Source of the DNA: Escherichia coli
Lineage (GTDB): Bacteria > Pseudomonadota > Gammaproteobacteria > Enterobacterales > Enterobacteriaceae
Length of the DNA: 64,000 nt
Reading direction: 5' to 3' (one strand)
NCBI RefSeq assembly: GCF_022846255.1
Contig: NZ_AP025682.1
Shown: piece after piece, positions 22,801-28,800 of the stretch
Position numbering within the stretch: the stretch's first letter is position 1
How the letters are laid out: each line of letters begins with the position of its first letter
Position numbers: made by a program

Positions 22801-25800
22801 GCTGGAAGGTGTTGTGGCAAGCACCATTGAGGTTATTAAAAAAGGCAAATAAGTAGTGACTACATTAACGCTTGTTTTAACAGCAGTAGGGTCTGTTTTA
22901 CTGCTGCTGTTTTTAGTCATGAAGGCGCGTATGCACGCTTTCCTGGCTTTAATGGTGGTGTCCATGGGGGCTGGCCTTTTTTCCGGTATGCCGCTCGATA
23001 AAATCGCAGCGACGATGGAAAAAGGGATGGGAGGCACCCTCGGCTTCCTGGCGGTGGTTGTCGCCCTGGGAGCCATGTTTGGTAAGATCTTACATGAAAC
23101 CGGCGCGGTCGATCAGATTGCCGTCAAAATGCTCAAATCCTTCGGTCACAGCCGCGTGCATTATGCCATCGGCCTTGCGGGGCTGGTTTGTGCGCTACCG
23201 CTGTTCTTTGAAGTGGCGATTGTTCTGCTGATTAGCGTTGCTTTCTCAATGGCGCGCCACACCGGCACGAACCTGGTGAAGCTGGTAATCCCATTATTCG
23301 CCGGCGTGGCGGCAGCGGCTGCGTTCCTGGTGCCTGGGCCAGCGCCAATGCTGCTGGCATCGCAGATGAACGCCGACTTTGGCTGGATGATCCTGATTGG
23401 CCTGTGCGCGGCAATTCCGGGAATGATTATTGCCGGGCCGCTGTGGGGTAATTTCATCAGCCGCTACGTGGAGTTGCATATTCCTGACGACATCAGCGAA
23501 CCGCATCTCGGCGAAGGCAAAATGCCGTCCTTCGGATTCAGCCTGTCGCTGATCCTGTTGCCACTGGTGCTGGTGGGGCTGAAAACCATTGCCGCGCGTT
23601 TTGTGCCAGAAGGCTCTACCGCTTACGAATGGTTTGAGTTTATTGGTCATCCGTTTACCGCGATTCTGGTTGCTTGTCTGGTGGCGATTTACGGTCTGGC
23701 AATGCGTCAGGGTATGCCAAAAGACAAAGTGATGGAGATTTGCGGTCACGCGCTGCAACCGGCGGGGATCATTCTGCTGGTGATTGGTGCGGGCGGCGTG
23801 TTCAAACAGGTGCTGGTTGACTCTGGTGTCGGTCCGGCACTGGGCGAAGCGTTAACCGGCATGGGCCTGCCGATTGCCATCACCTGCTTCGTGCTGGCAG
23901 CTGCAGTGCGCATCATTCAGGGTTCTGCCACCGTTGCCTGTTTAACGGCGGTGGGACTGGTGATGCCGGTCATTGAACAACTGAACTACTCCGGTGCGCA
24001 AATGGCGGCACTGTCGATTTGTATCGCCGGTGGTTCGATTGTTGTCAGCCACGTTAACGACGCGGGTTTCTGGTTGTTCGGTAAATTTACCGGCGCGACC
24101 GAAGCCGAAACGCTTAAAACCTGGACCATGATGGAAACCATCCTCGGCACTGTCGGTGCCATCGTTGGGATGATTGCGTTCCAGCTGTTGAGTTAATTAC
24201 TGCGACAAATTACTGCGAGCTTGCTCGCAGTAATTCATTTCTCTTTTCTCCTGTCTTCATCTTTTTGATCTCTCTCGCAAAAAGACCGGAACATTATCCG
24301 TTCTAATCACTGTGTTAACGGACGAGGGAGAAGATGATGGAGAAACACGGAGCTGAATTGCTGTTACAGCGGATGTTAAGTAACACCAGCGCTACTTTCA
24401 GGGAAGGGCAATGGGAAGCTATAGATGCGGTGGTTAATCAGCGGCGAAAACTACTGGTTGTACAGCGCACCGGCTGGGGGAAAAGTGCCGTGTACTTCAT
24501 CGCCAGTAAAATCTTCCGCGATCGCGGCGCTGGCCCGACAATTATCATCTCTCCTTTGCTTGCCCTGATGCGTAACCAGGTTGCCGCCGCTGAACGGTTA
24601 GGTATTACGGCTGAAACGTTGAATTCTACAAACAGGGAAGAATGGCAGCGCATTAGCGATAAGTTGCTGCAAGGTGGCGTAGATTGTCTGCTGATTTCAC
24701 CTGAACGGTTGGCGAATCAGGATTTTCTTGAAACGGTTTTATATCCAGTCGCTGACCGCATCGGTTTACTGGTGGTCGATGAGGCGCACTGCATCTCTGA
24801 TTGGGGCCACGATTTCCGCCCGGATTACCGACGTATATTAGATATTTTGCGCCAACTGCCTGCGAATACCCCTATTCTGGGTACAACCGCGACAGCGAAT
24901 AACCGTGTCGTTGAGGATATCCGTCAGCAATTGGGTGACATTGTGATTCAGCGTGGAACGCTGGCTCGCGAAAGTTTGGCGCTTGATGCCTTAGTCTTAG
25001 GAGAACAGTCATCCCGTCTGGCATGGTTAGCAACGGTTATCCCTCAGTTTTCCAAATCGGGAATTGTTTATACCCTGACGACTCGCGATGCTGAACTTGT
25101 CGCCGAGTGGTTAAGGAAAAATGGTATCAGTGCATTTGCTTATTACAGCGGCGTGACTTGTGAAGGTGCGGAAGATTCTAATACTGCCAGGGAGTATCTG
25201 GAGCAGGCACTGCTGGCAAATAAAATCAAAGTGCTGGTCGCGACGACGGCATTAGGTATGGGATTTGATAAACCTGATTTAGGCTTCGTCATTCATTATC
25301 AGATGCCGGGGTCTATTGTCGGTTACTACCAACAGGTGGGGCGTGCCGGGCGTGCTATAGATTCCGCAGTTGGCATATTGCTTTGTGGTGGTGAAGACCG
25401 CGCTATTCATCAATTCTTCCGTGAAAGCGCCTTTCCTGCGGAGGCGCAAATTCATGAAATACTCAACGTACTTAGCGAGAATGACGGTCTTACCCTACGA
25501 GGCATTGAACAACGGACGAATCTTCGTTATGGGCAAATAGAAAAAGCACTGAAATTATTGGTAGCTGAAAATCCATCGCCTGTGGTGTATACCGAGAAAT
25601 TATGGCGCAGAACTATCGTCAGTTTTTCTCCTGATCATGAACGAATTAACCATTTGATGAATCAGAGAAAAAGTGAGTTGGCAGACGTTGAAAGCTATAT
25701 CACGACCAAGGAGTGCAAAATGCAATTTCTGCGCCGCGCACTCGATGAGCCAAGTGCCGAACGTTGTGGTAAATGTAGCAGTTGTCTTCAGCATCCGCTG

Positions 25801-28800
25801 TTGTCGCCCGACATTGATAGCGGCTTACTCCATGCGGCAAATTTATTTATTAAACACGCTGACCTGCCATTAAATCTCAATAAACAGGTGGCATCTGGGG
25901 CTTTTACGCAATACGGATTTAAAGGGAACTTGCCTGCGGGTTTACAAGGATCTACGGGGCGAATCCTTTCTCGTTGGGGAGATTCCGGGTGGGGAAAGCA
26001 GGTAGCACAGGAGAAAAAAACGGGGCGCTTCAGTGATGAACTGGTGGAGGCATGTGCGGAAATGGTTCGCCAACGCTGGAATCCGCATCCTGAACCAACC
26101 TGGGTATGCTGCGTTCCTTCATTAAGGCACCTCGACCTGGTTCCTGATTTTGCCCGGCGACTGGCGGCGAAACTTGGCTTACCTTTTATTGATGCCATTG
26201 AAAAAGTCGTGGACAATCCACCGCAGAAAATGCAGCAAAACCGTTTTCACCAGTGTCAAAATCTCGACGGGGCGTTTGTGATTACCCCTCCTTTGATGCC
26301 AGGTCCGGCGTTGCTGGTTGACGATATCGTGGATTCTGCATGGACGCTGACAGTTCTGACAGCACTGTTACGCCAGGCAGGTTGCCTGACGGTTTATCCT
26401 CTTGCCCTTGCTTCTACCTCGGTAAAAAATTGATGAATCTTTCAGCCAATGCTCAAGCAACTCTCCTGCTAACCAGCGATTTTTCTCGCGCGGCGGCGAG
26501 TGAGTATAAACCTCTTAGTAATAGTGAATGGGGGAAGTTTGCATTATGGCTGAAGCACCAACGTATCAGTCCCGCCGAGCTTCTGGTGCCGCAACCGCAA
26601 GAGAAACTTACAGGCTGGAGCGATCCGCGTATTTCTCAGGAGCGAATTCTTGGCTTGCTGGCGCGTGGTCATAGTCTGGCGTTGGCTGTAGATAAGTGGC
26701 AACGCGCCGGTTTATGGATCTTAACCCGCGGAGATGCCGATTATCCCGTTCGCTTGAAAAACCGATTGCGAACAGATGCACCTCCCGTTTTATTTGGCTG
26801 CGGGAATAAAGCATTACTGCAAGCGGAAGGTATGGCGATTGTTGGCTCGCGAGATGCTCCGACTGACGATTTGCGCTATACCCAACAACTGGCCGCGAAA
26901 CTGGCCCAACAGGGGATTTGCGTTATCTCTGGTGGTGCGCGAGGTATTGATGAATGTGCAATGGCCTCGGCTCTGGAGGTCGGGGGAACTGCCGTTGGCG
27001 TATTAGCTGATAGCTTGTTAAAAACGAGTACGTTAGTGAAATGGCGTGAAGGGCTTATAGCAGGCAACCTGGTGTTGATTTCGCCGTTTTACCCAGAGGT
27101 ACGTTTCACCGTCGGCAATGCGATGGCGCGGAATAAATATATTTATTGCCTTGCTGAAAGCGCAATGGTTGTACGTGCGGGAATGACCGGTGGAACGATA
27201 ACCGGGGCGATGGAGGCATTAAAACATCAGTGGCTGCCCATGCAGGTTAAACCAAATCAGGATATGCAATCAGCCAATTCACGATTAGTAGAAAATGGGG
27301 CGTCATGGAGTGCTGAACAGGCTGAGAATGTGACGATCAGACTGCCAGACGTTCCTGGGCTGATGTATGACAGAGCACTCCGTAACGCTCAACCAGAACT
27401 GTTTTCGCTGCACGAAGATGACGCAAATTACGCAGTAATGCCCGCGCATACCCCTGTCGATTTTTATCAACTCTTTGTGGCGGAACTGGCGATCCTTGCA
27501 AAGGAATCGATAAGTATTGAAAGGCTGGCGTCTTGTACTGGTTTAACCATCGAACAAATTAGTGTGTGGCTGAACCGCGCAGAAGAAGAGGGAAGGGTTA
27601 TCCGATTGGGCGAAGGTCATTATCAGTTCAGGTAATAAAACAGGTGCCGCGTCTGGTTGTGTGCAACACCTGTTTGAACCTTACCCCTTCATCCACATTC
27701 GAATGCCGTCGAGGAACATCTGAGTTGCCATCATCACCAGAATCAATCCCATCAGGCGTTCAAGTGCGTTCACCCCTTTCTCGCCCAGCAGACGTAAAAA
27801 TAGCGAAGACTGTAGCAGGATGACAAAGGTGCCGCCCCAGGCCAGCAGCAGAGCAATCACCAGATGTCCCATCTGATTCGGGTACTGGTGAGACAACAAC
27901 ATCAGCGTGGCGAGAATAGTCGGCCCGGCGACTAACGGAATTGCCAACGGCACGATAAATGGCTCTTCACCTGCCGGAAGCCCGCTGCTATTTCCTGAAG
28001 CGCTGGGGAAAATCATCTTAATGGCGATCAGAAACAGAATGATGCCGCCAGAAATGGAGACGGTTTCTGCCCGCAGGCTAAGAAATGCCAGAATTTTCTC
28101 TCCCGCAAACAGGAACACCAGCATCACAAGGAGAGCAATAAGCAACTCTCGCACCATGATTGCCCGCCGTCTTTTCGGTTCAGTATGTTTCAGTACGGAC
28201 ATGAAAATAGGTAGGTTTCCGAGCGGATCCATAATCAGGATCAATAAAACTGTTGCAGAAATGATTTCATTCATAACTCAAATTCCCTGATAATTGCCGC
28301 GGACTTTCTGCGTGCTAACAAAGCAGGATAAGTCGCATTACTGATGGCTTCGCTATCATTGATTAATTTCACTTGCGACTTTGGCTGCTTTTTGTATGGT
28401 GAAAGATGTGCCAGGAGGAGACCGGCACATTTATACAGCACACATCTTTGCAGGAAAAAACGCTTATGAAAAATGTTGGTTTTATCGGCTGGCGCGGTAT
28501 GGTCGGCTCCGTTCTCATGCAACGCATGGTTGAAGAGTGCGACTTCGACGCCATTCGCCCTGTCTTCTTTTCTACTTCTCAGCTTGGTCAGGCTGCGCCG
28601 TCTTTTGGCGGAACCACTGGCACACTTCAGGATGCCTTTGATCTGGAGGCGCTAAAGGCCCTCGATATCATTGTGACCTGTCAGGGCGGCGATTATACCA
28701 ACGAAATCTATCCAAAGCTTCGTGAAAGCGGATGGCAAGGTTACTGGATTGACGCAGCATCATCTCTGCGCATGAAAGATGACGCCATCATCATTCTTGA

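Follow-up and report, generated by a model that had tools for sequence, protein, structure and literature searches.

The window analysed here, a 64,000-nucleotide stretch of the Escherichia coli contig NZ_AP025682.1 (RefSeq assembly GCF_022846255.1), carries between gntU and yhgN a two-gene toxin-antitoxin-like module that is almost certainly the rqlH-rqlI operon of the E. coli chromosome, a system also named PsyrTA; Millman et al. (2022) write of "PsyrTA (also called RqlHI)". The system is already named and has been studied experimentally, and it sits here at the position where E. coli usually carries it. The first gene product matched the PADLOC PsyrT profile (PDLC03928) with an E-value of 0 and 1064.2 bits (residues 3-698 on profile positions 4-687 of 689), and the second matched the PADLOC PsyrA profile (PDLC03927) at 1.4e-202 and 671 bits (residues 1-400 on profile positions 1-397 of 398). 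The remaining PADLOC matches were far weaker: for gene 1 these were helicase models (DpdF, Cas3-like and BrxH), and for gene 2 ShosA (6e-27). A preliminary description of the window, made from the sequence alone, had proposed a toxin-antitoxin or defence-type module in which a RecQ helicase fused to a phosphoribosyltransferase (PRTase) domain is paired with a DprA-like protein, and the match to PsyrTA/RqlHI bears out that assignment.

Both open reading frames (ORFs) and the one-base overlap between them were present as first described. The first ORF spans 24334..26433 (+) and encodes 699 amino acids (aa) when counted from the first of two adjacent ATG codons, and the second, DprA-like ORF (+) ends at 27635. 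The first ATG (24334) is preceded at a distance of 3 nt by a GGGAG Shine-Dalgarno sequence, which is 6 nt ahead of the second (24337). Because of this spacing, and because a length of 698 aa is used by RefSeq, by Russell & Mulvey and by Millman et al., rqlH (= psyrT) probably starts at the second ATG and occupies 24337..26433 (+), encoding a 698-aa toxin that joins a RecQ-like helicase to a ComF-type PRTase; the in-frame ATG at 24334 would give the 699-aa form. The rqlH/rqlI junction reads AAAATTGATGAATC, in which the last base of the rqlH stop codon TGA (26431-26433) is also the first base of the rqlI start codon ATG (26433-26435; TGATG), an arrangement consistent with translational coupling of rqlI to rqlH. 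RefSeq/PGAP places the start of gene 2 at an upstream ATG (26340), giving a protein of 431 aa and a 94-nt overlap with rqlH. We prefer the 400-aa form of rqlI (= psyrA) at 26433..27635 (+), a DprA-like antitoxin by its PADLOC PsyrA and Pfam DNA_processg_A matches, because position 1 of the PsyrA profile pairs with residue 1 of this form and because it is the form given by Russell & Mulvey and in Millman Table S2. In the other alleles compared, the upstream ATG and the frame that it opens (26340-26432) are kept, and an N-terminally extended 431-aa isoform is conceivable.

All motifs quoted in the preliminary description were found in the two proteins, and profile searches agreed with its helicase, zinc-binding, PRTase and DprA domain calls, the zinc and PRTase matches being weak. 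On the 699-aa numbering of gene 1 the motifs begin at residues 46 (TGWGKS), 149 (DEAH), 333 (QQVGRAGR), 478 (CGKCSSC) and 662 (VDDIVD). The superfamily 2 (SF2) RecQ-type ATPase/helicase core lies at 24394..25407 (+; approximately aa 20-357), with Walker A TGWGKS (K49), the DEAH box (D148) and motif VI QQVGRAGR; it was matched by Pfam DEAD (5e-25, residues 24-195) and Helicase_C (4e-13, residues 240-341), the whole protein scored above the cut-off of the NCBIfam recQ_fam model (250.9 bits, cut-off 219.8), and a sequence search of the PDB aligned RecQ (1oyw) to residues 6-348 at 5e-53. A RecQ-type tetracysteine zinc-binding motif follows at 25714..25785 (+; C460-x16-C477-x2-C480-x2-C483), recognised by its cysteine positions and by a weak match to Pfam RecQ_Zn_bind (1.4e-3, residues 444-485). 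Pfam gave no match to an HRDC domain in RqlH.

The C-terminal ComF-like PRTase domain lies at 25861..26406 (+; aa 509-690 as bounded in PMC4670107) and contains the phosphoribosyl pyrophosphate (PRPP)-binding loop LLVDDIVDS (D663). When isolated, the C-terminal domain still scored 254 bits against the PsyrT profile, and Pfam Pribosyltran matched residues 606-687 weakly (5.8e-3). Its relationship to the ComF family is visible in a BLASTP alignment of the PRTase region with E. coli GntX/YhgH that spans the PRPP loop VDDIVDS (E 7e-5), in a match of the C-terminus to the NCBIfam GntX model (6.4e-3), the remaining weak matches all being to PRTases or PRPP synthetases, and in the RefSeq label "ComF family protein" borne by one truncated rqlH copy. 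The isolated domain returned no significant match in the PDB sequence search, which found neither a solved RqlH/PsyrT PRTase nor a solved ShosT.

Two PADLOC models named DpdF, PDLC02869 (74 positions, 2e-52) and PDLC02866 (255 positions), matched the PRTase C-terminus of RqlH and no other part of it (25834-26430). These two models look like RqlH/PsyrT fragments that were clustered under the DpdF name, and they could cause mis-annotation.

In RqlI the DprA/SLOG Rossmann-like core was placed by Pfam at 26697..27308 (+; aa 89-292), with GSRDAP at residue 138 and SGGARGIDE at residue 166; the matching models were DNA_processg_A (2.2e-50) and the SLOG family LDcluster4 (1.8e-10). The PDB sequence search returned DprA chains at approximately 2e-11 and the solved ShosA 9vzo at 2.6e-7. 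A helix-turn-helix (HTH) was predicted in the RqlI C-terminus by Russell & Mulvey (PMC4670107), and a putative HTH-like region can be placed, with weak support, at 27492..27632 (+; approximately aa 354-400), a stretch that the PsyrA profile covers and in which the Pfam HTH_26 match was non-significant (E 0.35).

The closest experimentally studied counterpart is the RqlH-RqlI pair of the extraintestinal pathogenic E. coli (ExPEC) strain F11, with an RqlH of 698 aa, an RqlI of 400 aa and a PRTase domain at aa 509-690 (Russell & Mulvey 2015, PMC4670107). The RqlH mutants made in that study were K49A, D148A, D663A and DIVD663EVME, and the window protein, numbered over 698 aa, carries K49, D148 and D663 (in LVDDIVDSA) at the same positions. 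The two systems share the species, the rqlH-first operon, the 698/400 aa lengths and the K49/D148/DIVD663 residues, with no substantive differences, in a comparison that covered the protein lengths and the positions of K49, D148 and D663. At the nucleotide level the islet that carries the pair is 99.6-99.8% identical to that of other ExPEC, such as CFT073 and ST131, where it also lies between gntU and yhgN, and the nearest complete genomes differ by approximately 0.2%.

The pair also closely matches a construct listed as PsyrTA. Millman Table S2 gives construct SG127 as the PsyrTA of E. coli STEC 1299, a 3,485-bp clone encoding a PsyrT of 698 aa and a PsyrA of 400 aa, and this clone opens with ATTACTGCGACAAATTACTGCGAGCTTGCTCGCAGTAATT, which is the window sequence from 24198 on. 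The window PsyrT was 97% identical to that of STEC 1299 over the N-terminal 399 aa, the part compared, and the window PsyrA was 98% identical and colinear over 400 of 400 aa. The corresponding values against Bacillus sp. FJAT-29814 were 53% for PsyrT (N-terminal 399 aa) and 32% for PsyrA (full length). With PsyrTA as described by Sberro (2013) and Millman et al. (2022) and modelled in PADLOC (PDLC03928/PDLC03927), the window pair shares domain order, gene order and full-length profile matches; the difference is that in Millman Table S2 the construct recorded as defensive is the homologue from Bacillus sp. FJAT-29814 (32-53% identical), while the one from E. coli is not.

The preliminary description had also called the architecture unusual and possibly undescribed, and this does not hold. 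The fusion has been known since 2012 as RqlH, when the Mycobacterium smegmatis protein was described biochemically as a RecQ-like ATPase followed by a linker, a tetracysteine zinc domain and a ComF/PRTase-like C-terminal domain (Ordonez, Unciuleac & Shuman 2012, PMC3378886); non-K-12 E. coli were noted as carriers of the fusion in the same paper. The window RqlH has the same ATPase/linker/zinc/ComF-PRTase layout, likewise with no HRDC domain; the M. smegmatis protein differs in being encoded without an rqlI partner gene, and it is 41% identical to F11 RqlH (PMC4670107). The E. coli pair was studied genetically in 2015 as RqlH/RqlI, and since Millman et al. (2022) it has been present as PsyrTA in PADLOC and DefenseFinder. 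The exact architecture was already named and characterised, and the claim to novelty is therefore refuted. A literature search, by title among the papers listed for PsyrTA and by PsyrT and PsyrA as whole words, found no dedicated mechanistic or structural study of PsyrTA.

The pair had further been read as a helicase-armed new subtype of ShosTA (Kimelman 2012; Rousset 2022), in which a PRTase toxin is also paired with a DprA-like antitoxin. The antitoxins do resemble each other: RqlI matched the ShosA models (6e-27 and 4e-8) and the solved ShosA 9vzo, and BLASTP aligned it with E. coli ShosA at 24% identity (E 2e-12), over the DprA core only. The two systems also share their logic, since toxicity in ShosTA requires PRPP binding by the PRTase toxin and is neutralised by the DprA-like ShosA (PMC11961720; PMC12961424), and they share a phenotype of DNA damage and filamentation. 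However, PsyrT and PsyrA were by far the best profile matches, the latter at 1e-202 for RqlI, and the toxins could not be connected. Isolated from the helicase, the RqlH C-terminal domain matched no ShosT model among the PADLOC profiles at E<=1, and a BLASTP comparison of the PRTase region with the ShosT of E. coli KTE181 gave no significant alignment and did not align the PRPP loops. ShosT has no helicase, rqlHI is toxin-first whereas Millman Table S2 lists ShosA ahead of ShosT, and the helicase fusion has been in print since 2012-2015, with names given in 2013 and again in 2022. We therefore consider a ShosTA subtype very improbable, and what stands of this reading is the DprA-like partner and its relationship to ShosA.

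Four established families that share a domain with one of the two proteins were also considered and rejected. Like E. coli RecQ, RqlH has an SF2 RecQ helicase core and a Cx16CxxCxxC zinc motif; it differs in its RqlH-specific linker, its added PRTase and the absence of a Pfam HRDC match, and it scored far below the classical RecQ models (TIGR01389, 293 bits where the cut-off is 640; PRK11057, 223 where it is 1015). RqlI was similarly below the competence DprA models (101 bits against 191 for TIGR00732, and 80 against 495 for PRK10736), and RqlH reached 11.5 bits against an NCBIfam cut-off of 233 for ComF. DpdF was rejected on 147 bits against an NCBIfam cut-off of 550, on a PADLOC DpdF score far under that of PsyrT, and on the neighbouring genes, which are gntRKU, yhgN and asd and not a dpd cluster.

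The ComF-like and DprA-like components together raise the question of a remnant or accessory natural-competence module that processes incoming single-stranded DNA (ssDNA), a link that was discussed by Russell & Mulvey (PMC4670107) and that the resemblance of the RqlH C-terminus to ComF/GntX and the DprA domain of RqlI would favour. We give this explanation very little credence: both proteins fall far under the NCBIfam cut-offs for DprA and ComF given above, E. coli has its own GntX/YhgH as well as a more canonical DprA (the latter according to PMC4670107), and the behaviour seen in experiments is that of a toxin-antitoxin pair (PMC4670107).

The whole rqlHI/psyrTA islet was delimited by BLASTN and junction alignment to 24197..27680 (+), where 3,484 bp stand in place of the 56-bp gntU-yhgN spacer of K-12. 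Homology to K-12 MG1655 breaks exactly at the gntU and yhgN stop codons, and the earlier statement that the pair is absent from this locus in K-12 is correct, the spacer being all that is found there. The islet is flanked by gntR-gntK-gntU upstream and by yhgN (convergent), asd and glgB downstream. A repeat search found no flanking direct or inverted repeats, no integrase is encoded in the islet, and its GC content (49.5%, against 50.8% for the window) shows no notable shift. Directly after the gntU stop codon the terminator scan called a putative terminator-like hairpin at 24208..24235 (+; AATTACTGCGAGC/GCTCGCAGTAATT with a T-rich tail), formed by a 13-nt inverted repeat of 100% complementarity, which probably insulates rqlHI from gntU read-through. 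At the other end, an inverted repeat read from the sequence (AACAGGTG...CACCTGTT, 27639..27674) lies within the 45 bp that separate the stop codons of the convergent genes rqlI and yhgN and may be a bidirectional terminator, one whose long loop kept it out of the calls of the terminator scan. No sigma-70 consensus turned up when the 137-nt spacer upstream of rqlH was scanned for promoters, and the Rfam scan gave no match inside the islet.

Of 5426 complete E. coli genomes searched by megablast, 1650 (approximately 30%) carry the islet, usually as one copy per genome, with no plasmid copies and with 95-99.8% identity across carriers, which include CFT073, ST131 and O157:H7. It lay between gntU and yhgN in all four of the genomes inspected for its position, CFT073 and an O157:H7 genome among them. 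Between alleles that have diverged by approximately 4%, rqlH had 72 synonymous and 14 nonsynonymous substitutions and rqlI had 15 and 9; the synonymous excess in both genes indicates purifying selection on rqlHI. Three carriers have an inactivated rqlH beside an intact rqlI. In O157:H7 Wll001 (440-2564) rqlH is a frameshifted pseudogene with its first in-frame stop at codon 203, in NZ_OZ040267.1 it is interrupted by IS1, and in NRZ94505 (2552-4586) it is cut off by ISEcp1-blaCTX-M-15, leaving a "ComF family protein" fragment. Repeated inactivation of rqlH with retention of rqlI is the pattern expected of toxin decay in which the antitoxin is retained.

Published work on the F11 pair gives the toxin-antitoxin reading its experimental basis. 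There rqlH and rqlI are co-transcribed and their products bind each other; RqlH without RqlI induces the SOS response, makes cells filament, arrests growth and raises the mutation rate, also in K-12, and RqlI neutralises this toxicity (PMC4670107). Toxicity is abolished by deletion of the PRTase domain or by mutation of D663, so the earlier suggestion that the PRTase domain acts as effector has experimental support in F11, and the PRTase domain by itself is insufficient for toxicity (PMC4670107). The helicase-dead mutants K49A and D148A are more harmful than the wild type and are rescued by a second mutation, D663A (PMC4670107); the helicase ATPase, like RqlI, therefore restrains the PRTase. 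The preliminary description proposed that the helicase senses phage DNA, a hypothetical role; what the published mutants show is greater toxicity when the helicase is dead. The M. smegmatis RqlH hydrolyses ATP in a DNA-dependent manner and is a 3'-5' translocase/helicase, activities for which its C-terminal domain is not needed (PMC3378886). Millman et al. (2022) were unable to obtain a psyrA deletion.

Several observations nonetheless weigh against reading the window pair as a toxin-antitoxin module with a PRTase effector and a role in defence. The generic PRTase profiles in Pfam and NCBIfam match the RqlH C-terminus weakly, and an AlphaFold2 single-sequence model of the 698-aa protein (mean pLDDT, the predicted local distance difference test score, 39; pTM, the predicted template modelling score, 0.29) was unusable as evidence for the PRTase fold. 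Some traits of the F11 pair are not those of a canonical toxin-antitoxin system, namely the large proteins, the toxin gene coming first and the greater number of persisters in the double deletion (PMC4670107). The islet sits amid housekeeping genes, without mobile-element hallmarks or adjacent defence genes. Finally, Millman Table S2 marks the E. coli STEC 1299 construct SG127 with "x" for observed defence, and the native PsyrTA of E. coli NILS69, whether deleted or expressed in K-12, gave no detectable protection and a growth defect only (2025 preprint).

These results bear on a different account of function, in which the E. coli pair serves mainly DNA metabolism or genome maintenance, RqlH being an accessory RecQ-like repair or recombination helicase with a PRTase regulated by RqlI, and the toxin-antitoxin behaviour being a by-product that appears once the regulator is removed. 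The two phage tests were independent, used E. coli alleles and were both negative, and a fixed chromosomal site among core genes with no mobile-element signature fits such a role, as does the finding of population studies that strains share a conserved expression of PsyrTA along with its conserved genomic context. Almost all Gram-positive carriers of RqlH lack RqlI (PMC4670107), and RqlH is present in mycobacteria that lack RecQ (PMC3378886), and the rqlI mutant shows oxygen-dependent DNA stress with reduced gut and in vivo fitness (PMC4670107). Against it, the Bacillus homologue protects against phage (the Bacillus sp. FJAT-29814 construct is marked "v" for defence in Millman Table S2), the system is missing from approximately 70% of E. 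coli genomes, K-12 included, its toxin gene has been inactivated repeatedly, and deletion of rqlH has no reported repair phenotype (PMC4670107). Population studies, for their part, list PsyrTA as a "defence system" common in E. coli, with enrichment in phylogroup E2. On balance we regard a primarily genome-maintenance role as somewhat unlikely, although it deserves to be kept in view; it bears on function only, and the identification of the locus as RqlHI/PsyrTA is unaffected by it.

For the RqlHI/PsyrTA toxin-antitoxin reading, a working model can be drawn from the domain content and the F11 data. In the uninfected cell RqlI, with its DprA/SLOG fold, would bind RqlH and keep the PRTase silent. 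A perturbation at the level of DNA might then free or redirect RqlH, candidate triggers being intermediates of phage replication or recombination, titration of RqlI by ssDNA, or a stalled helicase. The PRPP-dependent PRTase would in turn damage DNA or nucleotide metabolism, leading to SOS induction, growth arrest and an outcome resembling abortive infection.

A contrasting possibility is that E. coli RqlHI, instead of being a conventional abortive-infection system, is a helicase-guided PRTase whose targets are DNA or DNA-bound nucleobases or nucleotides, at intermediates of replication or recombination; this would give it a DNA-modifying or nucleotide-depleting function with a physiological role in gut and low-oxygen fitness. 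Alternatively, it may be directed at elements that have not yet been tried. The two negative phage tests of E. coli alleles are compatible with this reading, which we consider improbable. If true, it would be a discovery about the RqlHI family and not about the window locus. The interest that remains likewise lies with the RqlHI/PsyrTA family: in the chemistry of its PRTase, in how RqlH is released from RqlI, and in a common E. coli form that has fitness effects but so far no anti-phage activity.

Elsewhere in the window we noted a second island absent from K-12, of approximately 10 kb (39216-49182), between glgP and glpD and 99.2% identical to CFT073. It encodes a chaperone-usher fimbrial operon (a major subunit, two chaperones, an usher, minor subunits and a 376-aa putative tip protein) together with three hypothetical genes, and may correspond to the Auf fimbriae genes known from uropathogenic E. 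coli. The 376-aa ORF (45737-46867) is intact in the window, and the CFT073 record describes it as having an "internal stop". Conversely, the K-12 segment yhhZ-yrhA::IS1E-yrhD-yrhB (approximately 3.4 kb; K-12 3581626-3585081) is missing, and 61 unmatched bases (18361-18421) lie between yhhY and ggt. The sole match above an Rfam gathering threshold in the 64-kb window was the RyhB small RNA (RF00057, 83 bits) at 19060-19124 (+).

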